From positions 14,392-78,391 of the IMG/VR virus record IMGVR_UViG_3300005544_000001: a DNA stretch of 64,000 bases. The stretch is one strand, 5' to 3'. The translations under genes were made by a program, and so were the position numbers. The notes under the pieces were generated by a model. It did not search any database and was not told the origin of the DNA. It was given only the letters and a program-made list of their open reading frames with translations. Below, in pieces: positions 1 through 56,983 of this stretch. Numbering within the stretch: position 1 is the first letter of the stretch; each line of letters begins with the position of its first letter. The DNA is from a virus (Duplodnaviria; Caudoviricetes).

Positions 1-1524
1 GACAAGGCGTTTCTCGAGGCGATGATCGCGCTTCAGCGTTGGGTGCCAGAGTTGCGCGTCAACCATACGTCGGTATTTCCCGCGTGTTCGACGTACGTGC
101 AGTGCGCGCTGTCGGTCGTCGAGGCACCGGTCGGTGAGATCAAGAAGGTTTACACGATCGCGGGCGGAGAGTGGTGCGACAAGGTTTACTATTCTTCGCG
201 CGCGCACATGGAGGTGCTCAAATGGCAGCGCTGCCTGCTGACGCGGTTCACGTCCCCAGAGAACGCCGGAATGCCCGCGCTCCAGCAGGGATTCAGATTT
301 TCGGAAGCTTCCACGGATTCCCCCGCGGGACGCGCGCGTGCGGGCATCTGGTCGATCAACCGCAAGCGGTTCCACCTGGCGCCTTGGCTTCAAAGCAATG
401 AATCGCTGGTGATAGAGTGGGACGGCGAAAAGAAGGAATGGCTCGACGACGATGTTCTGGACCAGAACTACTTCGACGCCGAAGCGGCGGCCGTCGTGAA
501 GCTTTACGTGCAGAAGTCGCACGAGCGGGATTTCGGGTGCGACATGGCCAAGATACGGATGCTGGAGCAGGACTACGGGCAGAAGCTCGGCGAACTCATG
601 CACGGCTGGCGGGAGAAGACGCGCAACCAGGAGAACACGGACGCCGAGGAATTGAACGTGTGCTCGCCGACGAGTGCGGATCTCGCGGACGATGCACCTA
701 TGGTTCCCACTGATCAGACGATTGTCGCCTACATAGCGGACATTGACGGCGGCGCCGCCACTGTCGAAGTGGCGAACTTGGTGAAGTCGTGGGGCCCGGC
801 TTATATCGTGAGCGGCGGCGACAATTGGTACGGCAGCGCGATTACGAAGGAAGCTTTGGACGCCTCAGTCGGTCCCAGTTACGGAGATTACATTTTCCCC
901 TACTTGGGCACGCTGGCCACCGGGGCAGAACGGACGAACGCATTCTTTCCGGCTGTAGGTGATCATGACCGGGATCCCGTCGGCCGGCTGCCGGTGTTCC
1001 TGAACTATTTCAACCTGCACAAGCCGTATTACGATTTCGTCCAGGGGCACGTTCACTGGTTCATCGTGGACAACGGGCTGAACCAGGCTGACGTGCTCGT
1101 CCAGGCGGACGGGAACACGTCCACCAGCGTGCAGGGCGAGGCGTTCAGGCTGAAAATGGCTCTTTCGACGGCGCGCTGGAAGATTGTCGTCATTGGGGCG
1201 CCACCCCATTCTTCCATCAAGGAGAGCAACACGGCATACGCTGCGCTGCGCTGGCCCTACAAGGCGTGGGGCGCGGATTTGGTGCTGACCGGCGACGATC
1301 ACCTTTACGAGCGCCTACTGGCACCCGAGGGCTATCCGCTCATCGTAGCCGGCTGGAGCGGCCGGGCGCTGGTAGCCAGCGGTTCACCGATCCCCTACAG
1401 CCTCGTGCAGTATGACGCGGATTTCGGGGCGCTGAAGATCACCGTGTCGTGCGACGAGTTCAAGGTCGAGGCGATCAACCGGGTTGGGGTGCTCATCGAC
1501 ACGCTTTTGTTGACTAAACCATGA
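1..1524 (+). CDS. 5'-truncated protein with C-terminal calcineurin-like metallophosphoesterase domain
   Basis: Frame is open from base 1 (DKAFLEAM...). C-terminal motifs IADID, GGDNWY, GDHD, GDDHLYER follow the purple acid phosphatase-like order. Confidence 0.7.
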   Translation, partial: DKAFLEAMIALQRWVPELRVNHTSVFPACSTYVQCALSVVEAPVGEIKKVYTIAGGEWCDKVYYSSRAHMEVLKWQRCLLTRFTSPENAGMPALQQGFRFSEASTDSPAGRARAGIWSINRKRFHLAPWLQSNESLVIEWDGEKKEWLDDDVLDQNYFDAEAAAVVKLYVQKSHERDFGCDMAKIRMLEQDYGQKLGELMHGWREKTRNQENTDAEELNVCSPTSADLADDAPMVPTDQTIVAYIADIDGGAATVEVANLVKSWGPAYIVSGGDNWYGSAITKEALDASVGPSYGDYIFPYLGTLATGAERTNAFFPAVGDHDRDPVGRLPVFLNYFNLHKPYYDFVQGHVHWFIVDNGLNQADVLVQADGNTSTSVQGEAFRLKMALSTARWKIVVIGAPPHSSIKESNTAYAALRWPYKAWGADLVLTGDDHLYERLLAPEGYPLIVAGWSGRALVASGSPIPYSLVQYDADFGALKITVSCDEFKVEAINRVGVLIDTLLLTKP

Positions 1525-2032: not shown

Positions 2033-4464
2033 AGTTCGACCAACTCGACAACCAGCCGTGCCTGCTCCCCCAGGTGAACGAGGAATCGTGTGAAAGCACG
2101 AGGCTACCGGTCCAGGAGGGGCGCCTCGAGCTGCGTCCCGAGGTTGCCGTCGTGGCAGTTCTGGGCACCGTACAATATCGAACCTTCCTGATCGCCAACG
2201 GCGTCGAACGCGAGGTCACATCCGGGCTCAGCTATCGCTCTGGCAGCACCGTAATCGCAGTCATCGGCGCCATCGGCGGCAACGCCACGGGCATCTCGGT
2301 CGGCATAGTCACGATCTCGGTCGAATGGCAGGGCCTCGAGGCGTTCGCCCAGCTTCAGGTCGTTGACTCCTGCGACAACATTTCGAACGGGCTGGAGATC
2401 GTCATCGACAACTCGGAGTCGATGAATCAGGCGTTTGGCGCGCCATACGGCACCAAGCTTGATTTCGCGAAGTTCCTCGCCAAACAGTTCGCCGGAGAGG
2501 TCGACGTGCGCAAGGACATCGTTGGGCTGACCACGTTCGCCGTGTCGGGCCAGGTTGTGGCGCCTTTGACGGCCGATAACATCGCCGTCGGGACCGCCAT
2601 CATGGGTGTCGGCTTCGTTCCGGAGCAGACAGACATCCATGCGGGGCTCGAAACGGCCATCGCGGAACTCGCCGCGGCGAACGTCGACCGCCGCGTTATC
2701 CTGCTGATCACGGACGGCCAGCATAACGACGACATCGAGCCGCTGCAGACAGCCCTCCAGTTCCGGTCCGGCGGCGGGGTTCTCATCGTCATTGGCCTGC
2801 GCGCCGGCCTGGAGGCGTTCATGCGCCTAGAGAAACTCGCCAACGGCGGTTTCTTCATCTCGGCCTACGACGGGCCCACCGCGGAGGACGCCAAACGTTA
2901 CGTGAGCGGGTTGAAAGGCTACCTGTGCGCTGGCAACTGTTGCCCGGAAGGTGACGTCATCGTTGGCCAGGGCAGGCTCGACTACGAGGATTGGCTCAAC
3001 TGGGATAACATCGGAAACGTCGACCTGATTGGGAACGGATTTTACGATCTTATCCCAGGGCACGGTCTATTCGTGGATCTCGTGGGAAGCTCGGCGCCAT
3101 GGCAGGGCGGGTTGATCAGCAAGAAATCGTTCACGTTCCAAAACGGCGTCAACTACAAGCTGAGTTACAAACTGGCCGGCAATCAGCGCGCGGACGCCAC
3201 GGGCTACTCGGTCAAGGTCAATGCCGGCAGCGTCGCGACCGCCACGCACGCGATGAACGATTGGCGCCAGGACTTTACGACCTACGACTTGAGTTTCGTG
3301 GGCGATGGCACTTCCGGCCAACTGATCTTCATCCAGGAAACGGTCTCGCCTGCGCCGGCGGCTCAAGCCTTCGGGGTTTTGCTTGATGACGTCACGCTCA
3401 TCAACGATGACACGGACGAAATTCTGTTCACCGAAAGTTTCGACAACGAGAATCTGACTTACGTGCCGCCCGCTTGCGGCATGGGCACAGTCTACGGACA
3501 GGGTTACGGTGGCGGTTACGCCTACGGGACGTGCTGCTACGGTTACGGGTGCCTGGCTGAACCGGTCAAACAGCAGAACCCGGATCCCATGCCGCCAACG
3601 GATCCCGAGACGGAGCCCGATCCGTTCTGGATCAGCACGCAGTCCTACACGGCAAGCTGCCCCGTTGGAACCACGGGCGCCGACGTGACACGCTCGGCGA
3701 GCTACAAGAGTTTCATCAGCGCGGCCGATGCCAACGCAAAAGCCCTGGCGCTGGCTCAGACCGCAGCCGAGGCGGCGCTGAACTGTGTGAGCCCGCCCGT
3801 CAACGGCGATCTCATCAACATGCACGCCATCCGCGGCAGGCATACGACAAAGATAGGCTTTGCCGCATTCGGAAAGACGTCCGGCGACGTCTGGAACGCA
3901 TGGAGCGCCTCCGATTACAACAACGATACCCTGTTGAAATCGGACGGGACCGCCTCCTTCGTCACCATCCGAAAGTGTGAAGTCGGCGATTTCACGCAAA
4001 CGGAACTCGGCGCGGTCAATTTCGATGTGTCGCTCGACCATCCGGACGCCATGTACAAGATGGGCCAGGCGTTCTATCGCAACGATTCAATCACGCCGAA
4101 GGACGAGGCGCTGTTCTTCGACGGATTACCCGAGGGCAATTATGAGGTCTACGTTTACGGCCACGGCGCTGACAACGCGCTGCAGGTCGGCCATTACCAG
4201 GTTCGCACCGGTAAACTCACAGGAGATCTGGCATCTGGATTCGTGCTCGATCCTTTCACCAACACCGTTTACCCAACGCTCGACACGTCGAACACGGACA
4301 GCTACCTCGACACCGCCTGGGCCGAAAACGTCCAGTTCGTGAAATACTCAGTCACGATCGGCGCAGGGCAGACCGGCATCTGCATCATTTCCGCCAGCGC
4401 ATCCGGCGTGGATCCCGGGCGAATCAGCGTGCTCATGGGCGTGCAGATTCACCGCTTGACATAA
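2029..4464 (+). CDS. Multidomain virion-associated protein: Ig-like, vWA, carbohydrate-binding-like and DUF5977-like domains
   Basis: 811 aa; MIDAS-like DNSES and LITDG; SYTASCP...SYKSFISAADANAKALALA resembles DUF5977. Confidence 0.7.
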   Translation: MKFDQLDNQPCLLPQVNEESCESTRLPVQEGRLELRPEVAVVAVLGTVQYRTFLIANGVEREVTSGLSYRSGSTVIAVIGAIGGNATGISVGIVTISVEWQGLEAFAQLQVVDSCDNISNGLEIVIDNSESMNQAFGAPYGTKLDFAKFLAKQFAGEVDVRKDIVGLTTFAVSGQVVAPLTADNIAVGTAIMGVGFVPEQTDIHAGLETAIAELAAANVDRRVILLITDGQHNDDIEPLQTALQFRSGGGVLIVIGLRAGLEAFMRLEKLANGGFFISAYDGPTAEDAKRYVSGLKGYLCAGNCCPEGDVIVGQGRLDYEDWLNWDNIGNVDLIGNGFYDLIPGHGLFVDLVGSSAPWQGGLISKKSFTFQNGVNYKLSYKLAGNQRADATGYSVKVNAGSVATATHAMNDWRQDFTTYDLSFVGDGTSGQLIFIQETVSPAPAAQAFGVLLDDVTLINDDTDEILFTESFDNENLTYVPPACGMGTVYGQGYGGGYAYGTCCYGYGCLAEPVKQQNPDPMPPTDPETEPDPFWISTQSYTASCPVGTTGADVTRSASYKSFISAADANAKALALAQTAAEAALNCVSPPVNGDLINMHAIRGRHTTKIGFAAFGKTSGDVWNAWSASDYNNDTLLKSDGTASFVTIRKCEVGDFTQTELGAVNFDVSLDHPDAMYKMGQAFYRNDSITPKDEALFFDGLPEGNYEVYVYGHGADNALQVGHYQVRTGKLTGDLASGFVLDPFTNTVYPTLDTSNTDSYLDTAWAENVQFVKYSVTIGAGQTGICIISASASGVDPGRISVLMGVQIHRLT
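4452..4461 (+). promoter_or_regulatory. Candidate -35 element (CCGCTTGACA) upstream of the Cas7-like locus
   Basis: First 10 nt of the 12-mer repeated at other promoters in the window; no clear -10 at 17 nt. Confidence 0.4.
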
Positions 4465-4610
4465 ACGGTTCAATCGGGTTTTCTACGGTCATGCGTTTAG
4501 AGCCGCAATGGTCCCTCCAAACACTTTGCACCCGCTGCCGTCTGGCGGCGATTTCAAATCAGCCGCGCTCTAACGTTCGGGAGTCGGGTGCTTTTCCAAA
4601 TGCGCAGAAC

Positions 4611-4630
4611 GGTTTGGTTTGGTATGGCAA
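4611..4630 (+). repeat. Four GGY-NN pentamers in the leader of the Cas7-like gene
   Basis: GGTTT GGTTT GGTAT GGCAA, ending 27 nt before the ATG at 4658. Confidence 0.75.
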
Positions 4631-4657
4631 GCCCTCTGGCGCATTACTCCAAAACAC

Positions 4658-5290
4658 ATGAAGACAGCAGAAAAAAAGCTCACTGCCATCGGCGGCGAGT
4701 CACCAACGAACGGCGCACAGCATGGGATCGAACTTCAAATTCCATTCCGATGCGAAGTGACGGTTGAAGGTGTTGCTCCAATTCTTTTCCACGCGTGGAA
4801 CGTGGAGAGCGTCGATTCAAAATCAAAAGCCAAAAAAGGCTCTGCCGAAAAGAAAAGTGACGACGTGGAAAGCTACGTTTACCGGAATGATGAAAAGGAG
4901 GTTTGCATTCCAGGCGAGTATTTACGAGGCGCGATCGTAAATGCTGCAAAATTCCAACAAGATCCTCGCAGCCCAAGGAAGTCGGCTGCTGATCTTTTCA
5001 AGGCCGCGATCGTCTCGCTGACGCCGCTCGCTTCCTTGGGGGCAAAGGATTGGGATTATTTGGACAAGAGAAGGGTCACAATCCAGCGAAACGCGATAAC
5101 ACGCTGTCGCCCTGCGATGCGCGAGGGCTGGTCTGCAAAATTTATCCTCATGGTGAATTTGCCGGAGTACGTAGGTCAGGAACTTTTGAACGCTACCATC
5201 CAGCAGGCCGGAAAGCTGATTGGTCTTGGTGACTTTCGTCCGAGTTTCGGGCGATTCATCGTCACACGGTTTGTCGTGTTGAACGATTAA
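4658..5290 (+). CDS. Stand-alone Cas7/RAMP-like protein (putative Vipr-type effector)
   Basis: 210 aa from ATG 4658. N-terminal VTVEGVAPILFH strand, IPGEYLRGAIVNAA (compare RAMP IPGSSLKG) and C-terminal Gly-rich loop AGKLIGLGDFRPSFGRF; directly followed by the pentamer array. Confidence 0.8.
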   Translation: MKTAEKKLTAIGGESPTNGAQHGIELQIPFRCEVTVEGVAPILFHAWNVESVDSKSKAKKGSAEKKSDDVESYVYRNDEKEVCIPGEYLRGAIVNAAKFQQDPRSPRKSAADLFKAAIVSLTPLASLGAKDWDYLDKRRVTIQRNAITRCRPAMREGWSAKFILMVNLPEYVGQELLNATIQQAGKLIGLGDFRPSFGRFIVTRFVVLND

Positions 5291-5293
5291 TTC

Positions 5294-5757
5294 GGTGTCG
5301 GTGTGGTTGGGCAAGGCTCGGCGTGTTGAGGCTTGGTGCGGTGGCATCGAGATGTGGCCATGCAAGGTGTGGTTCGGTCAGCCGTGGCGCGGTCAGGTTC
5401 GGTCAGGCGCGGTTTGGTCCACTACGGTTTGGCCGGGTGGGGTGAGGCGCGTTCAGGTAAGCATGGGCGAGCTACGGTACGGTCTGGTTCGGGACTCGAA
5501 AGAGTCCGGTCGGGTGAGGTCGGGCGGGGTATGGCAGGGTGAGCTATGGCACGGTGGGTTTGGGTAGGATTGAGTCGGGTAAGGCAAGGCGGGCATGGGT
5601 ATGGTACGGTTCGGGCGCGAAAGCGCCGGTATGGTTTGCTATGGCGGGGCCGGGCGTGGCCAGGTGAGGTTCGGCGGGGTGTGGTAATCCCAGGCACGGT
5701 CGGACGTGGTAAGCTTCCGCGCGGTGCGGTTCGCAATGGCAAGCTATGGTTTGGTGG
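5294..5757 (+). ncRNA. GGY-NN pentamer repeat array (putative guide-RNA array)
   Basis: Tracts 5300-5339, 5356-5490, 5508-5612 and 5628-5757 hold 82 in-phase pentamers; 63 begin GGY (manual count). NN is variable; tracts are separated by hairpins. Confidence 0.85.
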
Positions 5758-5793
5758 CGGGGCGTTGCCTCTTGACAAAGGCTTCGCCCCGCC
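5756..5793 (+). terminator. Hairpin closing the array (3' boundary); loop contains TTGACA
   Basis: GGCGGGGCG (5756-5764) pairs with CGCCCCGCC (5785-5793), with an inner GCCT/AGGC stem. No long U-tract. TTGACA at 5772-5777 may serve the next gene. Confidence 0.55.
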
Positions 5794-5812
5794 TTCAGCA
5801 TCAAGATTCCAG

Positions 5813-6559
5813 ATGACAGCAACTTTTAAACACAGCGGCGACCTGGGCGATATTATTTACAGCCTTCCGACAGTTAGGCATTTTGGTGGTGGGGATTTTT
5901 GGATCGCGGCTTCAAACTTCACGAGGGTTGAACTGACGCCAAACAACTGGCATGGCATTGACCGTTTGTTAGCCCGCCAACCGTATATAAGAAGCGTTCG
6001 CTCATATCGAATGGGAGAGTACGCGGTTTTCAATTTGGACTCGTTTCGCGGCCCGCTGAATCTTGCGCTTCGAAAACATGAGCAGATGGACAAGAGCCTC
6101 TGCGATTGGGTTTTGGAGACCCACAACGTTCCCCTGACCGCGAAGGAGACCGCATGGCTCACCGTCGAGCCGAAGACCGTTGCTCCGGTCGTCATTAACC
6201 GCACGGGCGCAGGACGGACGCGCAACGCCTGCTATCACAATTTCAAATTTCCGTGGCACAAAGTCTGGAAGAAATACGGACGTGACGCGGTGTTCATCGG
6301 GACGTGGGCAGAGTACGAGATGTTTTGCGGATCGTGCGGCGAGGTGCCGTATCACGAGACGAAGGATCTGCTCGAGGCCGCGCAGGTGATTGCCGGCGCC
6401 AAACTGTTCGTAGGGAACCAGAGCGTCTGCCACGCGATTGCCCAGGGCTTGTTTCAGCGTGTCCTGCTCGAAGTCTGGGTTGAGGGCGCCAATTCGACGT
6501 TCCTGCGTGAAGGCGTGACGAATGGTTTCGATGAGAAGGTGGAGTTGCCTGAAATATGA
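5813..6559 (+). CDS. Glycosyltransferase, GT9 (heptosyltransferase)-like
   Basis: True start ATG 5813 (MTATFKHSGDLGDII); C-terminal FVGNQSVCHAIAQGL typical of GT9-like GT-B enzymes. Confidence 0.7.
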   Translation: MTATFKHSGDLGDIIYSLPTVRHFGGGDFWIAASNFTRVELTPNNWHGIDRLLARQPYIRSVRSYRMGEYAVFNLDSFRGPLNLALRKHEQMDKSLCDWVLETHNVPLTAKETAWLTVEPKTVAPVVINRTGAGRTRNACYHNFKFPWHKVWKKYGRDAVFIGTWAEYEMFCGSCGEVPYHETKDLLEAAQVIAGAKLFVGNQSVCHAIAQGLFQRVLLEVWVEGANSTFLREGVTNGFDEKVELPEI

Positions 6560-6972
6560 AGGAGAAAACCGTTCTCGTTACTGGTTGCTTCGACGTGCTC
6601 CACCGCGGGCATATTGAGCTTTTGTATATCGCCGCCGAACACGGAAAAGTCGTTGTGGGCATCAATGACGACGAGAGTGTTCAAAAACTCAAGGGACCGA
6701 AAAGGCCCGTGAATAATGAGGTGGACAGGCTGTTTCTGATAGAAGCACTTGGCAGCGTGACCTACGGGTTCATCATTTTCGACGTGAAAGTGGACAAGGC
6801 GATCATGGACATCAAGCCGGACATTTGGATGAAAGGCGGCGATTACACGATGGAAACTCTGAACAAGGACGAGGTTGAGGCTGCGCGGAATGTTGGAGCG
6901 GAGATCATCATTATTCCAACGTGCAAGGGCTATTCGACAACCGAGACACTCAAGAAACTGGAGGCAGAATGA
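6556..6972 (+). CDS. Cytidylyltransferase-family nucleotidyltransferase (RfaE/HldE domain II-like)
   Basis: GCFDVLHRGH (HIGH motif), KGPKRP, KGGDY, GYSTT. Confidence 0.85.
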   Translation: MKEKTVLVTGCFDVLHRGHIELLYIAAEHGKVVVGINDDESVQKLKGPKRPVNNEVDRLFLIEALGSVTYGFIIFDVKVDKAIMDIKPDIWMKGGDYTMETLNKDEVEAARNVGAEIIIIPTCKGYSTTETLKKLEAE

Positions 6973-7478
6973 GCGAAACAGCCAAACACCGCGATCAGGT
7001 CGCGGAATTCACTGTGGGCAACGGCGTGGACCTTGGATCATCCGGGGACGGGATCGTGCCATGGGCAATCCAGGTTGACCTGCCGACCGACGAATATCTC
7101 CGATACAACCCAAAGCGCCCGCAGGATGCGATACACTGGCGCGGCAGCGCGCTTCACCTGCCGTTTCAGGATCGGGTGCTCGACTTCGTCCATTCGTCGC
7201 ATCTCCTCGAGGACTTCGAAGACTGGGGCCCGATACTCAAGGAATGGGACCGGGTGCTGAAGATCGGCGGTTACATGATCATCGCCGTGCCGGACCATGC
7301 TCGGTTCCGCGCGGCCGTCGCCCGCGGGCAGGGGGACAATCTCAATCACAAGCACGAATCGCACGTCGGAGAGCTGCCGAAGTATCTGCACACTTACAAA
7401 ACACTCATCGACAGGTTTGTGAGCAGTGATCCAAACGAGTATTCGATCCTCTATGTCGGCGTCAAAAATCCTGTATGA
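6969..7478 (+). CDS. Class I SAM-dependent methyltransferase
   Basis: ATG 6969; VDLGSSG, DFVHSSHLLED, EWDRVLKIGG. Confidence 0.8.
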   Translation: MSETAKHRDQVAEFTVGNGVDLGSSGDGIVPWAIQVDLPTDEYLRYNPKRPQDAIHWRGSALHLPFQDRVLDFVHSSHLLEDFEDWGPILKEWDRVLKIGGYMIIAVPDHARFRAAVARGQGDNLNHKHESHVGELPKYLHTYKTLIDRFVSSDPNEYSILYVGVKNPV

Positions 7479-8197
7479 AAGCACAAGTTATCACCGTCTC
7501 TAGCCACGATCCCGTCCAGTCCTATTATCACTTCGGCGCCTTCAAAAAGAGCCTGGCGAGGTTCGGCGTGGAGCCGACCATCCTCGGCCCGGGCGAGCCG
7601 TGGCGAGGGCTGATGACCAAACCGCGGCTTCTGCAGAAGTTTTTGAGCGAGAGCCGGCATAAAAGCGACAACATTATCGTGACCGATGCCTGGGACATCA
7701 TTTTCACCGCGCATCCCGACGAGGTGTGGGCGGCGAAGGAATTCGATGCGCCGGACGCCGTGATGTTCAACGCCGAGATGGGTTGCTTCCCGCGGGCTGA
7801 TCTGGCTGACAGGTTCCCTGACCCGGGCACCCCTTACCGATTCCCGAACTCAGGGTTCATGGCCGGCACGGCGAGCCAAATCCTTGCCATCCTCGACAGC
7901 ATGAACCTGAACGCCATTCGAGATGACACGCAGGAGCCCGACGGCTCATGGTTCAACCCGAACGATCAGGAGTATTACACGCTGGCGTTCCTCCAGCAGC
8001 CGGTGAAGATGGTTCTGGATACGCACGCGCGCGTTTGTCAGTCATTCTCTGGAAGTGCGCTCAGCGATTACGTCCTAGTCGATGAGGGTCGCGTCACAAA
8101 CAAGCGTACGGGTTGCAAACCACTCGTTTGGCATTTCAACGGGAACTCGAAGAACGACATTTTGCCTGAACTCCTGAAGCACAACCACCTTGCATGA
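7475..8197 (+). CDS. GT-A glycosyltransferase (PLOD GT-domain-like)
   Basis: VTDAWD, FNAEMGCFP, FPNSGFMAG, DQ, HFNGNSK. Confidence 0.75.
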   Translation: MKAQVITVSSHDPVQSYYHFGAFKKSLARFGVEPTILGPGEPWRGLMTKPRLLQKFLSESRHKSDNIIVTDAWDIIFTAHPDEVWAAKEFDAPDAVMFNAEMGCFPRADLADRFPDPGTPYRFPNSGFMAGTASQILAILDSMNLNAIRDDTQEPDGSWFNPNDQEYYTLAFLQQPVKMVLDTHARVCQSFSGSALSDYVLVDEGRVTNKRTGCKPLVWHFNGNSKNDILPELLKHNHLA

Positions 8198-8733
8198 ACC
8201 TCCTCACGCTCACTGGTAAAATCAACGTCCAGGGCTTCCTCCACGAAGCCGAAATGGAAAAGCTCGTCGAGCTGGGCATCAACAAGGACGTGCTCGAGGT
8301 GGGCAGCTTCATGGGCTTGTCGGCCTATTGCTTTGCCATCGTCGCCAAGAGCGTCATGTGCGTGGACACATTTTCCGCAGCTACAGACGGCCAACGGCAG
8401 GAAAGCACCCTTCAGACGCTCGCCGCCTTCGATGAAGCTGTTGCGAGGTTTTCCAACGTGAAACGGTTTGTTGGCAAATCTGAGCGCGCTGCCAGCCACT
8501 ACGGCGTCGCCGGCCAGTTCGATCTCGTCTTCCTCGACGCCATGCACACCTACGAGGACGTAAAGTATGACATCGAACGCTGGTGGCCACGCGTGCGCAA
8601 CGGCGGGATAATGGCGTTCCACGATTACGGCCACGATAATTATCCAGGCGTAAAACAAGCGGTCGATGAAAAGTTCGGGGAGGCGCCGGACGGCACTACG
8701 ATTGTCACCTTGAGGTGGATCGAGAAGAAGTGA
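8194..8733 (+). CDS. SAM-dependent methyltransferase (Methyltransf_24-like)
   Basis: LEVGSFMGLS, DLVFLDAMHTYEDV, GGIMAFHDY. Confidence 0.85.
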   Translation: MNLLTLTGKINVQGFLHEAEMEKLVELGINKDVLEVGSFMGLSAYCFAIVAKSVMCVDTFSAATDGQRQESTLQTLAAFDEAVARFSNVKRFVGKSERAASHYGVAGQFDLVFLDAMHTYEDVKYDIERWWPRVRNGGIMAFHDYGHDNYPGVKQAVDEKFGEAPDGTTIVTLRWIEKK

Positions 8734-8745
8734 CATGCTCGCCGG

Positions 8746-10248
8746 GTGAAACCGATTTGTTTGATTATTCCGCCGAGTCCATTCCTCGTTGACGAGCGCG
8801 TATTTCCAAGCCTCGGAATCCTGAAAGTTGCTGCCTGTTTGGAGGAAGCCGGAATCGCAGTGGAGATGGTGGACCTGTCCGGCGTTGAGAATCACGAGGA
8901 AGCCATCATCGCGCACGTCAAGGATTCAACCGCTACGCAATTCGGAATCACAGCCACTTCGCCCCAGTTGCCCGCCGCGCTCGCCATCTGCCGTGCAATC
9001 CGATCGATCCGCAGTGACGCCAAAATAATCCTCGGAGGACCGCACATTACCCTCATCTGCGCCGCGCTGAAGCTGGAGAGAAAAAACAACTCACTCGGGC
9101 GCGCCGAGCGAGCCTTCACTGTGCTCTCAAAGGAATTCGATGTCCTCGTGGCTGGAGATGGCGAGGATGCTATTTTGGTAGCTGTTGAAAACAATTCCCC
9201 AGGCCTGATAGATGCAGATGATCCGAAGGGTTCTCTGTTCATGACGAACGAGCGATTAAACACAACCCCGTGGCCGGCGAGACACCTGTTGGACATGGAT
9301 AGCTATGTGTTCAAAATTGAGGGCGTAAAGGCAACATCCGCCATTTTCCAAAACGGCTGTCCGTTCCCGTGCAATTTCTGCTCAGGAAGATTGAGCCCAA
9401 TGCTCCGAAGGATACGGACAAGAACCACCGAAAACGTCATCTCGGAAATGGAATTACTTTATCGCAAGTATTCCATCAAGGCAGTGATGTGCTTTGACGA
9501 TGAGCTCAACGTCAACCCAAAGATGATCGAACTGATGGACGCCCTTACGGCCCTGCAAGGGCGACTCGGCGTGGAATTTAAAATGCGGGGATTCATCAAG
9601 TCTCAGCTTTTTACGGATGCACAAGCTCAAGCCATGAACCGCGCCGGGTTCAAGTGGATTTTGGTCGGATTCGAGGCGGGCTCGGATCGCATCCTGGAGA
9701 ACATAAACAAGCGCGCAACGAAGGCCGAGAACACACGCTGCATGGAGATCGCCCGCCGAAACGGACTCAAAGTGAAAGCGTTAATGTCTCTGGGCCACGC
9801 CGGCGAAACGGAGCAAACCATATCGGAAACAAAGGACTGGCTGCTTGAGGTTAAACCCGACGACTTCGACGCCACGGTGATCACAACTTACCCTGGCAGT
9901 CCTTACTGGGACGAGGCCGTTCCGCATTCAACTCTCCCAAACGTCTGGACGTTCACGGCCCCGAAGTCCGGGGACAGGCTTCACTCAATGGATGTGGACT
10001 TCACCAAAGACGTCCTGTTCTATAAGGGGGCCATTGGGGAATACAAATCATTCGTGTTTACCGACCATCTTGGGGCGGACGATCTCGTCAGGCTGCGTGA
10101 CAATCTTGAGCGCGAAATCCGGGCCACGCTGAATATCCCATACAACGCCGGTGCCCCTGGGATTCGATTTGAAGCCAGCATGGGAATGACAAAACTTCCT
10201 TCGAACATCTTGAAAACCTCAAAGCTCGAGCATGAACCTAATTGCTGA
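8746..10248 (+). CDS. Cobalamin-binding radical SAM protein
   Basis: N-terminal B12-binding-like region (PSLGILKVAA...GGPH), CPFPCNFC cluster motif, FDDE, GFEAGS. Confidence 0.9.
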   Translation: MKPICLIIPPSPFLVDERVFPSLGILKVAACLEEAGIAVEMVDLSGVENHEEAIIAHVKDSTATQFGITATSPQLPAALAICRAIRSIRSDAKIILGGPHITLICAALKLERKNNSLGRAERAFTVLSKEFDVLVAGDGEDAILVAVENNSPGLIDADDPKGSLFMTNERLNTTPWPARHLLDMDSYVFKIEGVKATSAIFQNGCPFPCNFCSGRLSPMLRRIRTRTTENVISEMELLYRKYSIKAVMCFDDELNVNPKMIELMDALTALQGRLGVEFKMRGFIKSQLFTDAQAQAMNRAGFKWILVGFEAGSDRILENINKRATKAENTRCMEIARRNGLKVKALMSLGHAGETEQTISETKDWLLEVKPDDFDATVITTYPGSPYWDEAVPHSTLPNVWTFTAPKSGDRLHSMDVDFTKDVLFYKGAIGEYKSFVFTDHLGADDLVRLRDNLEREIRATLNIPYNAGAPGIRFEASMGMTKLPSNILKTSKLEHEPNC

Positions 10249-10789
10249 AACACAGTCAGTCCGCACCAAGAACGTAATCCAAAAACGCAGCCTGATCCCC
10301 ACTCCAACGCCTGTTCCTGGGGCACGCTGGATCCCATTGACCAAGGGCTTGTTCGCGCTGGTTGACGAGAAGGACTATGAGGCAGCGAACCGCTTTGCGT
10401 GGACGGCAGACATAAATCCAAGGACCGCTTACGCGTACTGCAAAAGAGGTGGTGAGATTTTCTGGCTTCACAGGATCTTGATGAGTGCCCCGGAAAACAT
10501 GCAGGTAGATCACAGGGACGGCAACGGGCTAGACTGTCGGCGGGATAATATGCGGGTATGCAGTCTTAAAAATAACCACCGCAATATCAGGAAAACCATT
10601 GTTAAAACCTCTTCAAAGTTCAAGGGCGTATCTTGGGACAAAACACGGGAAAAGTGGTCCGCCAAGATCAAGTTCAATGGAAAGACAATAAATCTCGGCA
10701 GGTTCGAAGACGAGGACGAGGCTGGGAAAGCATACGATGAATCAGCCGGGAGACTCTTTGGGGAATTTGCACTGCTGAACTTTCCATGA
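10232..10789 (+). CDS. HNH-AP2 homing endonuclease
   Basis: LHRILM...VDHRDGNGLDCRRDNMR followed by AP2-like SKFKGVSW...INLGRF...AYD. Confidence 0.9.
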   Translation: MNLIAETQSVRTKNVIQKRSLIPTPTPVPGARWIPLTKGLFALVDEKDYEAANRFAWTADINPRTAYAYCKRGGEIFWLHRILMSAPENMQVDHRDGNGLDCRRDNMRVCSLKNNHRNIRKTIVKTSSKFKGVSWDKTREKWSAKIKFNGKTINLGRFEDEDEAGKAYDESAGRLFGEFALLNFP

Positions 10790-11778
10790 AAATCGGCATC
10801 TTTCTATCGAGTCTCGGCGGTAGTCCGCTGCAGGCCGGGCTGGAGCGTGGGTTTGTCCAGTTGGGGCATGAATTGGTGGACGGCGGGAAGCCGTGCGATC
10901 TGCTCGTTGTTTTCAATCAAACAGCTCATGATCCGTCGTATTGCTACCCCGGCTTTCCGGACCATACCGGGCCGATGGCGTTCATCGACTGCGCGGAGTA
11001 TGGGTATTTCAGGCGACTGCCAGGCATCGTTGGCCATTATTGGAACGCATTCGCCGCGGGCTCAATGGTTCACGACACGAAGAACGTCGTGCAGCAGACA
11101 CGGTTGAAGAACTGGCTCGAGGGAAGGAGCTTCCCTTACTTCATTCGCGAGTTCAGCAAGCACGTCGTTTTCCCGATCAACTATCACCCGATCGATTACC
11201 CGCTTTATTACCACAGCGAATGCCACCAGAAGCCGGACCGCGAGGAGTATTTGAAGCGCGAACTCGACCTGTTCGTGAGCTGGGGGGCGAGTCATCCCTG
11301 GCGGATGCAGATCACGCAGGCGCTGCGGGATTGCCACACGCGCTGCGAAATCTTGGTCCTCGAGGAGAACGGGACGCCGCGGATGCGGCAGCGTGATTTC
11401 TTCCAGCGCACGCGCGCGGCGAAGTGCTCGGTGTCGTTCGACGGTTACGGGTCGTCGTCCTTCCGGCTGCACGAGGTGCTTGTGCGATGCCTGCTGTTGG
11501 CCGGACCCATGAGCATTGACCGTTACGCCCCGCTGGTGGACGGGGTGCATTTCATGGAATACGCGGTCGATGCGGTCGGCGAGGATTTCGTTGGGACGAA
11601 CGTGTGCAAGGTGCTTCGGCAGGCGCTGGCGGACCCGGAGGGAAGCTTTCGGATGTACGACGCGGGTTACAGACATTGCATGGAGCACTACACCGAAAAG
11701 GCGACCGCCGAATACGTCCTGCGCACCGTCGAGGCGCACGACTGGACGAAGGTAACGCCGCTTGACAATCCTGCGTGA
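10786..11778 (+). CDS. Putative glycosyltransferase (CgeB-like GT-B)
   Basis: C-terminal AKCSVSFDGYG...RLHEVL...LVDGVHF...EHYT pattern; lies in the GT cluster. Confidence 0.55.
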   Translation: MKIGIFLSSLGGSPLQAGLERGFVQLGHELVDGGKPCDLLVVFNQTAHDPSYCYPGFPDHTGPMAFIDCAEYGYFRRLPGIVGHYWNAFAAGSMVHDTKNVVQQTRLKNWLEGRSFPYFIREFSKHVVFPINYHPIDYPLYYHSECHQKPDREEYLKRELDLFVSWGASHPWRMQITQALRDCHTRCEILVLEENGTPRMRQRDFFQRTRAAKCSVSFDGYGSSSFRLHEVLVRCLLLAGPMSIDRYAPLVDGVHFMEYAVDAVGEDFVGTNVCKVLRQALADPEGSFRMYDAGYRHCMEHYTEKATAEYVLRTVEAHDWTKVTPLDNPA

Positions 11779-12076
11779 GCGCGGCAGCGTCACAGCCATG
11801 AACGACGCGACGGACGAAGCTCCGATTCCATCCCTCCCGATTCTTTCCGAAGAAGAAACGTTGAAGCAACCTCGTCAATACCTGAGCCGCTATTGCCCGT
11901 CGTGTGGATTCAAGGGTTGTTTCCGCGTCCCTGACGGTCTTTATCTCATAGCGGCACAACTCCACTGTGAGAGATGCGGACGATCCACTCGCGCCAAACT
12001 TAAATGGGACACGGGTTTGCTTCGCAGGATCTGGTGGTGGATCCGATGCCGCCATACCCGAATCAATTTAGGATGA
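11762..12076 (+). CDS. Small Zn-ribbon protein
   Basis: CPSC...CERC pairs; start uncertain (11762 or ATG 11799). Confidence 0.45.
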   Translation: MTILRERGSVTAMNDATDEAPIPSLPILSEEETLKQPRQYLSRYCPSCGFKGCFRVPDGLYLIAAQLHCERCGRSTRAKLKWDTGLLRRIWWWIRCRHTRINLG

Positions 12077-13125
12077 AACGCCTCACGTTGGTTGCCAGCA
12101 TCGACAACGCGACCGGCTACGGTCTGCACGCGATCCAGATCGTGCGCGACATCGAGCGGTTGACAGGCGCGCACGTTGCCATCCGGCCGATCCAGCAGAA
12201 GCAGATGTTTGGATCGAACATCCCGACCGACATTCGGCAGCGGTTCGTCAACGGCCCGCAGCCCGAAGAGTGGGAGCTTGTCCTGTCGCCACCATACTTC
12301 CGACCGACGCCCGGGAAGAAAACCGCCTACTTTTCGATGTGGGAAGCGACACGGCTCCCTCCCGGCGGCGCCGCGGTCCTGAACCTCGCCGAGATCGTCA
12401 TCGTGCCGACGTCCTGGGGCGCCTCGTGCTTCTCGGCGTCAGGCGTGGATCGTACGATGAGGATCGTGCCGCTGGGCATCGACGACAAGGTTTTCCACTT
12501 TCGCGCGCAGAGCTTGGCCAGCGAGCCTGCGAAGGCTGGAGTGCGCGCCGTGTTCGGGACTGCCGGCCGCATGTCCCACGGCGGGATCCGAAAGGGCATC
12601 AACGAGGTAATCGACCTGTTCCAGCGTGCGTTCCCGACGGAGGGCGACGTCCTGTTGCGCGTGAAAGTTCACCCTGACTGCCCGGTGACGCGACTGTCCG
12701 ACCCGCGCATCGAGATCAAAGCAGCGCACCTGCCCGACGAGCAGCTCGCCGACTGGTTCTCGGCGCTGACGTGCTTCGTATCGGGCGCCCGCGGCGAGGG
12801 CTGGGGGCTGTTCCAACAGCAGGCGATGGCCACCGGGCGCCCGGTCGTCGCCGCGCGCTTTGCCGGCCTGGCCGACTTCCTGACGCCGGATAACGGTTTC
12901 TGTGTGCCGTTCGTCCTCGGGGCGGCAGAACAGGCGTACGCGGGCTGCGGGCACTGGGCATGGCCGTCTGACCAAGGGTTCATCGAGGCGATGCGCACGA
13001 TCTATCGCGAGCCGCACCTCGCCGCGGCCAAAGGCGCCCAGGCGTCGAAGGACGTCGCGCACCTGACGTGGGAGAACTCGAACCTACGGTTGATTGATGT
13101 ATTACAAGAAGTGGGGGCACTATGA
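12073..13125 (+). CDS. GT4-family glycosyltransferase
   Basis: ATG 12073; RKGINE, ARGEGWGLFQQQAMATGRPVVA (Gln where GT4 usually has Glu). Confidence 0.85.
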   Translation: MKRLTLVASIDNATGYGLHAIQIVRDIERLTGAHVAIRPIQQKQMFGSNIPTDIRQRFVNGPQPEEWELVLSPPYFRPTPGKKTAYFSMWEATRLPPGGAAVLNLAEIVIVPTSWGASCFSASGVDRTMRIVPLGIDDKVFHFRAQSLASEPAKAGVRAVFGTAGRMSHGGIRKGINEVIDLFQRAFPTEGDVLLRVKVHPDCPVTRLSDPRIEIKAAHLPDEQLADWFSALTCFVSGARGEGWGLFQQQAMATGRPVVAARFAGLADFLTPDNGFCVPFVLGAAEQAYAGCGHWAWPSDQGFIEAMRTIYREPHLAAAKGAQASKDVAHLTWENSNLRLIDVLQEVGAL

Positions 13126-54871: not shown

Positions 54872-55444
54872 TTAAAATGGATTGTTGACTAAATCTTCAG
54901 CGCGTCCGCCTCGCATAAATTGACCAAGCTCAGTTCGCGGAACTGGCCTCCTGTTCAACGCCTGCTCAACGCAAGATGCCCAGCGACAATTTCCCGGCTC
55001 ATAGTTTCCGTCGTTATCCGGGAAGCGGTCTATGGAAGCGTCTGGAAACGGTTTGCGCCCCATGTCTTCGAGAAAATTCTCGAACACACTCCAACGTTCG
55101 CAAACCCTGATACCGCGCCCTCCGTAATCGCCGTAAGACTTATGATTGGGATTTTCGCAACGCTGGTGCATCATATGCCAAGTGGTGTATTCGGTGCTTG
55201 GACGAACACCTGCGGCGTCTCCGTGTTTGAAATTCCTGCGCGCTACGTTCTCTTTCGCAAGGCACCTGCACGAAACCGTGTAACCGCTAATCAGCGAGGA
55301 TAATCTGACCGTAACTTCTTTCCCGCAGTCGCACTTGCAGATCGCGAACGGGTTCCGTCCGCGACCTTCAATCCGACCGACAGAAAGAACCACGAGGCGC
55401 CCGAATCGAACACCGACTAATTCAGTGTAATCCTTTTTACGCAC
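54872..55444 (-). CDS. HNH-type homing endonuclease
   Basis: GTG 55444; [42 protein letters not shown]. Confidence 0.88.
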
Positions 55445-56720
55445 GCGGAACCTCCTCCTCTTTTCCAAGCACCCGCCCGTCCTCGATAATGACGGACGTT
55501 TGGTCCCCGGTCGAAACGACCTCCAGCCAAATTTGCGCATCTGCCGCCTTCGCCATGTCCAGCAGCAGCTTCAAACTTTGCTCGTCCAGCAGCGAGCCAT
55601 CGCGAATCAGCAGCACGCGCAGCTTGGGATTGAGCGCGATGCCGATGGCGACACTGACCCGCAACTGTTCCGCGCTCGAACACTGCTCGAACGGAATCGC
55701 GTTGAGCGTCACCCCGCCGGCCGTGTCGAACGCCATGCCTTCGATCGGGAACTTCGCAGCCATGATCGCCTTCTTCTTCTTGGCGTCGATGTCCTCGATT
55801 TTGGACGTGAGCTTCTCCGCCTCCTCGGTCTTCGCCTTGAACAGTTTGACGACCGCCGCCCGGGCCGTGTTCTCGCGCACTTTCAGGTTGGTTCTTTCGG
55901 CCTCGGCAGCCTTGGTTCTGAACGGTGTCAGGTCCTCATCCTTCAGATTCTCGATCTTCTTTTCCGCACTCTGCAACGACAATCTAGCGTCATGAAGCGC
56001 CTGTGTTTGAGTCACTCGCTGAGCCTGTAATCGCTCAATCTGTTCGTCGGTTTCCAGCAGATCCGCCTGACGTGAGGCGAAAAAGTTCGCAGCGCCCTCG
56101 GCTTCGATGCGCAATAATTGATTGGCCTGATTCTTCTCCGATGCAAGTTGCTGGTCCGCCAGAATCTCGGCCGTGCTGGTCTCGGTCGTCGGCGCACCTG
56201 GGTGGCTGGGCATCCCGTTCATCCGCGCCTCGAGCGCCTTTGCCTCGCGGTTGACCGCCGTGCGCTCCTCGAACACCTTGTCGCGCTCCGCGTCCATCGC
56301 AGATGTATCGAGCCCCACCAGCGCCCGCAGTGTCTCTGCCTGTTGCTTTGGCTTCTGGCGCGCGAACTCCAGCGGATCAAACGTCAGCTTGCCCACCAAC
56401 TTGTCCAAAATCGCCTGGGGCGATGCCTGGCGAACACCGTCCGCATTGGTGACAACGAGCGCCGTCCCGCCGGCGGCCGTGAATGTCCGGCGCACAACGA
56501 TGTCGCCGAGATCCAGAACCACCTTTGCCTTATCCTCGCCTCGACGCACGGGCATTTTGTCGGTTGTATCGCCACCCAGCGCGTACTGAATCGAATCCAG
56601 CACGGATGACTTGCCCTGGCCGTTGCGTCCGCCAATGACAACGACATTGCCATCGGGTTTGATTTCGACGACGGACAGGCGTTTAACGTTTTCGGAGGAT
56701 AGCGCGATTATTTTGCTCAT
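55437..56720 (-). CDS. SMC/SbcC-like ABC ATPase with coiled coil
   Basis: ATG 56720; [14 protein letters not shown] signature, LIRDGSLLD. Confidence 0.88.
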
Positions 56721-56983
56721 TGTCTGTTCGGATCGATTGCACGCATGGTTGAAGTGAGTATTTCGCGCGCCACTGTGCCGCAGTCTGACGCCGCTTGACA
56801 ATCTTTTTCGAGCACCGGCGGAAGATTTCCCCATCGCAGGTGCCACTTTCCAGTAGGCAGGATTATCCGCGTCCAGCAATTCCAGCAGATTGTCTTCGGC
56901 GCGTCCCACCGGCCGGCGCCCCTGGGTAGCTGCCGCAGCTCGCCATCGGTCCCGGCGCATCCTGGCTGGTCGCATCTCTTCAT
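56717..56983 (-). CDS. Hypothetical Cys-containing protein
   Basis: ATG 56983; C...GC and CWNC. Confidence 0.45.
   Translation of the reverse strand: MKRCDQPGCAGTDGELRQLPRGAGRWDAPKTICWNCWTRIILPTGKWHLRWGNLPPVLEKDCQAASDCGTVAREILTSTMRAIDPNRQ

Follow-up and report, generated by a model that had tools for sequence, protein, structure and literature searches.

The DNA analysed here, called the window below, is a stretch of 64,000 nucleotides from an uncultured tailed phage of soil or rhizosphere (IMG/VR record IMGVR_UViG_3300005544_000001). The 78-kb virus record also encodes tail-fibre, virion, DnaB and SbcC-like genes. Between a gene for a VWA protein and a glycosyltransferase-like gene, the window carries vipr, which encodes a protein of 210 aa, and directly 3′ of its stop codon an array of GGY-NN pentamers (5291-5757, + strand). 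The features of this locus are collected in Table 1. The array has by far the strongest 5-nt periodicity of the window: the period-5 Fourier power of the G indicator reaches 37 times the mean at 5501-5700, and about 7 times at best elsewhere in the window. A tract scan of the 78-kb record found no other GGYNN array. Parsed in register, the array yields 83 units in four tracts; 63 of them begin with GG, and the third base is a pyrimidine in all 63. Nine further assemblies, from eight samples, yielded DNA, and all of them have the same array sequence, which leaves no microdiversity to exploit.

Table 1. Features of the locus, in window coordinates
Feature	Position	Strand	Description
mini GGYNN tract	4611-4630	+	4 units, GGTTT GGTTT GGTAT GGCAA; 27 nt 5′ of the vipr start; detected by the tract finder
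vipr	4658-5290	+	210-aa RAMP (Cas7-like), from PDB match, fold and contact residues
tract T1	5295-5339	+	9 pentamers, 7 GGY; 1 nt out of register with T2
tract T2	5356-5490	+	27 pentamers, 21 GGY; 3′ end GGTAC GGTCT GGTTC
separator 1	5491-5507	+	spacer G and hairpin GGACTC-GAAA-GAGTCC (5492-5507); covariance model R1, E 1.9e-4
tract T3	5508-5612	+	21 pentamers, 16 GGY; 3′ end GGTAT GGTAC GGTTC
separator 2	5613-5627	+	spacer G and hairpin GGCGC-GAAA-GCGCC (5614-5627); covariance model R1, E 1.4e-4
tract T4	5628-5757	+	26 pentamers, 19 GGY; continues straight into the closing hairpin
closing hairpin	5756-5793	+	arms 5756-5764 and 5785-5793; 9-bp outer and 4-bp inner stem, GC-rich
site matched by the L185 vrRNA	5834-5875	+	codons 8-21 of ORF 5813-6559 (GT9-like gene), next after the array

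Two hairpins with GAAA loops interrupt the array and a longer one closes it. Re-reading the sequence gave exactly the coordinates that the initial annotation had assigned to these three, and confirmed the context that it had described for the two GAAA hairpins, namely GGTTC-G immediately before each and GGTAC shortly before, which proved to be one or two units earlier. Its tract sizes of 8, 27, 21 and 26 pentamers hold for the last three tracts, while the first has 9. Its statement that the pentamer phase breaks only at hairpins is inexact: the first separator is 17 nt long and moves the register by +2, but the second is 15 nt long and interrupts the repeats with the register unchanged. A further hairpin, GCAT-CGAG-ATGT (5344-5355, +), had been proposed between T1 and T2. 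It was not upheld, as it folds with −8.3 kcal/mol (z −0.66), which 48 of 200 shuffles matched, and nothing equivalent is seen in relatives. Two degenerate units and a 1-nt slip describe the T1/T2 junction better. Compared with shuffles, the first and second GAAA hairpins have z scores of −2.35 and −1.9, and both are retained in the fold of the whole array (510 nt). The closing hairpin is much more stable (−31.9 kcal/mol, z −5.5 against shuffles) and is followed by no U-run. It ends the array, the last unit of which probably has it as 3′ hairpin.

VIPR is a CRISPR-like system of RNA-guided DNA silencing, first described in 2026 preprints (10.64898/2026.04.26.720920, 10.64898/2026.04.26.720927). 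Vipr is a small RAMP with an RRM core, a G-loop and a thumb, which polymerises on vrRNAs, one protomer to each repeat. In a vrRNA, GGY alternates with NN, and double-stranded DNA is read by the NN string, one base of the target being passed over per unit, usually the codon wobble (10.64898/2026.04.26.720920, 10.64898/2026.04.26.720927). The vrRNA itself is a tract of 9-16 units followed by a conserved structured tail (10.64898/2026.04.26.720920). Discrete small RNAs that co-purify with Vipr are a further mark of VIPR systems.

The product of vipr matched PDB entry 36pp_D, 'SUSP1 Vipr protein', both as a single sequence (phmmer, E 3.5e-9) and, over its full length, as a family profile of 50 diverse homologues (E 3.7e-16). 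An AlphaFold2 model was obtained with a mean pLDDT of 92.4, and its top Foldseek matches were Csm3/Cas7 backbone subunits. The protein also matches phrog_4652, to which no function is assigned; searches of Pfam, NCBIfam and PADLOC gave no match. The residues by which SUSP1 Vipr reads G1, G2 and Y3 in the cryo-EM structure (H17, R138, D177, W178, R179 and E71; 10.64898/2026.04.26.720927) align to H45, R151, D192, F193, R194 and E87 of the present protein, position 193 keeping an aromatic residue with F in place of W178. R151, D192 and R194 are conserved at 90% or more in the 50-sequence alignment (A1); among closer relatives (alignment A2), H45, R151, D192 and R194 are invariant, and F193 and E87 are at least 90% conserved. 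The Vipr of the window should polymerise on the GGY repeats. Since the product of 4658-5290 is a Vipr RAMP by its 36pp match, its Csm3/Cas7-like fold and its conserved GGY contacts, we take the locus for a VIPR system, and the array is almost certainly a VIPR guide-RNA array. No vap (vipr-accessory) gene was found among the neighbours in the window; the neighbours in relatives are quite different, and none travels with vipr.

The separator hairpin in related loci

The Vipr family is very large and uncultured, with 7433 clusters at 90% identity and 1532 at 50%. Relatives were collected as 156 loci from viral contigs and species-representative genomes, and others by exact protein look-up. GGY-periodic tracts lie beside vipr in 157 of 163 related loci, 467 of them on the vipr strand versus 10 on the opposite one. 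The gene neighbourhoods of vipr vary widely. At the position of the mini tract upstream of vipr (Table 1), relatives have tracts of 8-34 units. By this comparison the mini tract is probably a decayed remnant of the upstream vrRNA that relatives carry; it may instead be an autoregulatory Vipr site on the vipr mRNA leader.

In the closest relatives the separator recurs as one module, in which GGYNC is followed by a spacer G and a stem 4-7 bp long that starts with GG in every case; then come a tetraloop, the complementary arm and, at once, GGY. It is always on the vipr strand and within the downstream array. We collected 29 unique hairpin copies, which have 12 different stems, all complementary. 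GAAA is the loop in 20 of the 29, others including GCAA, GTAA and TTCG, and the two variable outer stem pairs occur as four and three Watson-Crick types. The stem of the first hairpin of the window is common to four relatives (L007, L012, L013 and L014). The second hairpin has an identical twin in L185, a syntenic 78-kb phage (Logan SRR22808004 contig) the Vipr of which is 88% identical to that of the window; there it stands between different guides, as the NN strings around the identical hairpin are quite different from those of the window. When alignments were anchored on the hairpin, GGY was in register on both of its sides, with GG reaching 2 bits and the NN positions 0-0.1 bits.

Because the 29-copy set had been chosen for pairing, pairing was recounted with a pattern that specified the flanks only. 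This flank-anchored pattern gave 50 instances on the + strand versus 5 on the − strand. Within the arrays of the close clade the inner pairs were complementary in all but one instance, and overall in 32 of the 50. A covariance model built from the 29 copies (R1) had its matches confined to the + strand downstream of vipr. In five relatives outside its training (103 kb searched), R1 found 12 further copies, all inside arrays; in 76 loci from species-representative genomes it found no match. The stems of the homologous arrays bear out what had been read from the window, where the two stems were said to differ and yet keep pairing. On the Vipr tree the hairpin trait requires 4 changes, versus 20.7 for shuffled labels. 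The window belongs to a well-supported clade, in which 17 of the 20 rows carry the hairpin.

Tetraloop hairpins in general are not in excess in the arrays (114, versus 107 in a pentamer-shuffled control), and the enrichment is limited to the GGYNC-G-GG...CC-GGY class. Rfam searches gave no relevant match in 4000-7000 of the window at E ≤ 1, and none at the gathering score in 20 relatives, so that the separators are neither hammerheads nor members of any curated family. We conclude from these sequence comparisons that the two GAAA hairpins are a conserved separator between putative guide units in one clade of uncultured soil phages.

The same comparisons bear on two other readings of the hairpins. 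The first takes the periodic tract for a coding sequence or a DNA-level repeat and the hairpins for chance palindromes. Mechanical ORFs (5295-5567 and 5546-6559) do overlap the array, and gene callers gave a 337-aa ORF across it. A 5-nt period is, however, incompatible with coding; the tracts are strand-specific and vipr-linked in 157 of the 163 loci, the stems covary, and R1 matches are confined to arrays. The comparative data already refute this reading, to which we give practically no credence. The second takes the hairpins for weak intrinsic terminators or attenuators that would grade transcription along the array, instead of processing or capping elements. The stems are GC-rich, and the second hairpin followed by GGTATGGTTT passes a loose terminator scan, but the region has 3 terminator-like sites for 2.1 in shuffles, which is no excess. 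Moreover, the stems are merely 4-7 bp long with no U-run after them, tetraloops of the GNRA and UUCG kinds speak for a structural RNA element, and the arrays already have a proper terminator at their end. We consider this role very unlikely.

Several relatives deserve mention in their own right. Phage DSL-LC04 (GenBank OR003939.1; L197), the sole GenBank phage of the wider clade, has a GGYNN array without the separator hairpin. Its region 1146-2082 encodes a Vipr homologue (58% identity) labelled 'helix-turn-helix transcriptional regulator', and upstream of this gene there is an unannotated GGYNN array of about 290 nt that has a long hairpin. Misannotation has concealed a VIPR locus here. In L220 (10640-11000) many units have GGA in place of GGY (GGAAC, GGAAT, GGATT), and GGAAC is the unit that precedes each hairpin; these may represent a variant repeat consensus in the same clade. 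Six Phycisphaerales-associated loci (L030, L031 and L091-L094, near 3590) share a different element in their third array, GGYNCGGG-(A/G)TAAGTCACGGC-CCGGY, which is perhaps that clade's own tail. Finally, the syntenic relative L215 encodes, a few genes upstream of vipr, a protein of the Pfam family Acb2_Tad1_hairpin, an anti-CBASS/Thoeris signal sponge (4600-4914); the equivalent position lies beyond the window.

Searches for targets

Targets were scanned for with the published 1-nt-skip rule applied to the NN strings. For the tracts of the window, matches were at shuffle level in the phage's own 78-kb genome, in about 0.9 Mb of related loci read on both strands (about 1.8 Mb), in five complete relatives and in the 20-kb neighbourhoods of five further relatives. 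Six exact seeds of 8-9 units were run against IMG/VR: four scans returned 13 matching stretches, two returned none, and no match extended past its seed. One exact 10-unit seed against JGI metagenome contigs gave 1 match, which did not extend either. As these scans used exact seeds and allowed no mismatches, a target with an 80-90% match could escape them.

When every tract of every relative, 340 in total, was scanned in the same way on six complete phage genomes, one outlier emerged. This is the second tract of L185 (L185 2189-2258), which lies between the GGCGC-GAAA-GCGCC hairpin and the terminator, and the site that it matches is in the first gene after the array of the window (Table 1). With the 1-nt-skip code, 23 of 28 informative bases agree, and a run of 12 units has 22 agreements in 24. 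The reading frame is kept, and the skipped base is the wobble position. By manual count, L185's own allele agrees at 20 of 28 bases only, versus 23 in the window. The score of 22/24 was not reached with wrong skip lengths, in three shuffled sets, or in any of 6000 guide shuffles. Degenerate units of the L185 tract still match in register, but the last two before the terminator do not.

The L185 match is suggestive on two points: the one-base-skip code would operate in the clade of the window, and the units next to the 3′ hairpin would be a handle rather than guide. A guide of one phage against a gene of the other looks like VIPR warfare between related soil phages.

The matched gene is the first of a series directly 3′ of the array (5813-13125, +) that comprises sugar-activating, glycosyl- and methyl-transferase and B12-radical-SAM genes.

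Another candidate was rejected. A 13-unit tract of L053 agreed at 19 of 20 bases, in frame, with the Walker A codons of an SbcC/AAA_23-like ATPase (56601-56639, −). Wrong skip lengths reached the same or a higher score, and we therefore treat this match as chance-level. Its site is within ORF 55437-56975, and the L053 contig was also found in a Steroidobacteraceae MAG.

Organisation of the array and proposed mechanism

How the hairpins are placed relative to the tracts bears on their role. In relatives no array starts with a hairpin and each ends in a terminator-like one, so that every tract has a hairpin at its 3′ end and the first tract has none at its 5′ end. The final units before the hairpin are semi-constant (GGTNY GGTNN GGTTC). 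Almost all copies have GGTTC or GGTCC as the last of them, its C being invariant, and the tract behind the hairpin often opens with GGTAT. Tracts between hairpins have 11-29 units; the length is exactly divisible by 5 nt in 7 of 12 and misses this by one in four others. The hairpin directly abuts the next GGY, leaving no spacer and no room for a promoter. Separate promoters are therefore unlikely, and a common precursor is the simplest reading.

That the hairpins are functional unit boundaries is very probable. For their more specific role, hairpin placement agrees with the published architecture of a tract plus 3′ tail, which favours assigning the hairpin to the upstream unit as its short tail. 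We lean towards 3′ tails or caps, with some reserve.

The hairpin could instead be a 5′ handle or nucleation site of the downstream tract, from which Vipr would assemble 3′-wards. The next tract abuts the hairpin and starts with the semi-constant GGTAT, which leaves some place for such a role; just behind the hairpin, too, GGY is at its most conserved, and in the window 10-13 nearly perfect units follow each hairpin, with degeneracy rising later. On the other hand, the first tract after the stop codon is never preceded by a hairpin while every tract has one behind it, and the conserved structure of type II sits 3′ of the repeats. In addition, the matched guide of L185 is 1 nt out of register with the two units after its hairpin, and reaches within two units of the terminator. 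A 5′ role thus strikes us as improbable.

A different question is whether the hairpins mark all boundaries. The initial annotation had spoken of four guide-sized tracts. This does not stand as worded: at 21-27 units the long ones exceed the 9-16 of characterised vrRNAs, and correspond to footprints of 63-81 bp, while T1 may belong with T2. The hairpins may then mark some boundaries only, tracts of 21-29 units holding at least two guides of 9-16 units, like the published 'staggered' arrays, or having arisen by decay of an intervening hairpin. In keeping with this, inter-hairpin lengths form two groups (11-17 and 21-29 units), a decayed hairpin is found mid-way in the 24-unit tract of L007, and the L185 target spans 12 units where published guides have 9-16. 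Long tracts have no consistent internal dip in GGY conformity, however, nor a second conserved motif inside them, and most keep a single register. We hold partial boundaries to be possible, though not likely.

Our preferred explanation, which we consider probable, is that an uncultured tailed phage of soil or rhizosphere has here a stand-alone VIPR locus, with the hairpins as short vrRNA tails. It would work as follows. The vipr gene (4658-5290) and the array (5291-5793) would be transcribed together from the + strand. Vipr protomers would bind one GGY each and form a helical filament displaying the NN of every pentamer, and the NN string would read double-stranded DNA, one base being skipped per unit, so as to silence a rival mobile element. 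What the structured 3′ tail is to other vrRNAs would be provided in this clade, in short form, by the closing hairpin and the two GGTTC-G-[GNRA hairpin] modules. With each hairpin ending one tract, the precursor would yield three units (T1+T2, T3 and T4), or four if T1 is separate. The hairpin would stop filament growth; host RNases would cut the unprotected junction, and the hairpin would then shield the 3′ end from exonucleases. Co-transcription, processing and the capping role are what we infer here.

One may go further and suppose that the GNRA-hairpin clade is a distinct, vap-less VIPR subtype, unsampled by the NCBI-based survey, in which a GGYNC-G-hairpin-GGTAT module of about 25 nt acts like a CRISPR repeat; the 76 loci from species-representative genomes and phage DSL-LC04 indeed lack it. 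This module may then be a minimal tail that suffices to define a unit, which different phages have in common and which lies on either side of guide cassettes that can be exchanged, and guides may reach 21-29 units, with DNA footprints of 63-87 bp. We regard this extension as speculative and rather unlikely.

The discovery of VIPR is only months old, and the present locus, from a very large uncultured family, has a much simpler tail (a tetraloop hairpin of 14-18 nt) and lacks an accessory gene, while its tracts are up to two times as long as known guides. Should the hairpin by itself suffice to define and stabilise a vrRNA unit, engineered VIPR guides could be built on a smaller scaffold, multiplexed arrays would have a natural model, and the vrRNA tail could be compared more sharply with the CRISPR repeat. 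It has been proposed that phages use VIPR against other phages, and the L185 guide aimed at the glycan-cluster gene of the window would be a case of this from soil.

Comparison with known systems

The multiplexed, CRISPR-like guide array put forward in the initial annotation proved a sound description, in that the tract is a guide-RNA array served by a Cas7-like protein, and the analogy with CRISPR is apt because the array matches the published VIPR architecture exactly. CRISPR itself is absent: the locus has no direct repeats besides the pentamers, and Pfam, NCBIfam and PADLOC detected no cas gene (Cas1/2, Cas6, effector nuclease) among the neighbours. Class 1 CRISPR systems with Cas7 filaments (Csm3 of type III-A, with Cas6-processed repeats) share with the locus the RAMP fold, one protomer per fixed RNA step, and the alternation of constant hairpin modules with variable guide segments in one precursor. 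The step is 5 nt here versus 6 nt in those systems; guide information is interleaved, in the NN of each pentamer, instead of contiguous, and the variable segments are themselves repeats.

Among VIPR loci, which are mostly phage-borne and vary in array architecture among seven types (10.64898/2026.04.26.720920), staggered arrays, hammerhead-interspersed arrays (types I and V) and single-vrRNA loci are found (10.64898/2026.04.26.720920, Results, figs S18-S20). Like such published arrays, the present one is a polycistronic vrRNA array with a structured element between repeat tracts, but its separator is a plain tetraloop hairpin and contains no hammerhead. As the separator has no catalytic core, cutting, if any, would be done by host RNases or by Vipr. 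For the seven types the preprint lists only six vap genes, and it also speaks of vipr genes that stand alone (10.64898/2026.04.26.720920), from which it follows that a vap gene is not required for every type.

Type II is the only VIPR studied in detail, types III and V being represented by small-RNA sequencing alone. Among the closest known systems is the type II system of Escherichia phage SUSP1, with Vipr, Vap1 and vrRNA1-4 (PDB 36pp; 10.64898/2026.04.26.720920, 10.64898/2026.04.26.720927, 10.64898/2026.10.15.759431). Both systems are phage-borne and have a homologous Vipr RAMP with the same GGY-contact residues, GGY-NN tracts that flank the gene on the vipr strand, several downstream units, and a conserved structure after each tract. 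The target logic, wobble-aligned with a 1-nt skip, may be shared too, as the match of one member of the clade (L185) suggests. The two differ in that Vipr is only about 29% identical (to the Felixounavirus Vipr), and in that the tail is here a GNRA/UUCG hairpin of 14-18 nt after GGYNC-G, versus a pseudoknot of about 40 nt without similarity to it. Tracts have 11-29 units versus 9-16, a vap gene and conserved neighbours are lacking, only 4 units are left of the upstream vrRNA, and the phage comes from a soil metagenome. The locus thus falls outside type II as delimited by the SUSP1 and P. fulva clades (pseudoknot tail, 9-16 repeats, vap1, close phylogeny).

It has nonetheless the hallmarks of VIPR: a Vipr homologue, the GGY-contact residues, GGY-NN tracts on the vipr strand and hypervariable NN. 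It has a structured tail as well, in the form of a covarying hairpin after each tract, which differs from the type II pseudoknot and which we infer to belong to the 3′ end. We conclude that the finding is real and mostly already explained by the published VIPR model. What is specific to this clade is a covarying tetraloop separator much shorter than the type II tail, unusually long tracts and a locus that does without an accessory gene.
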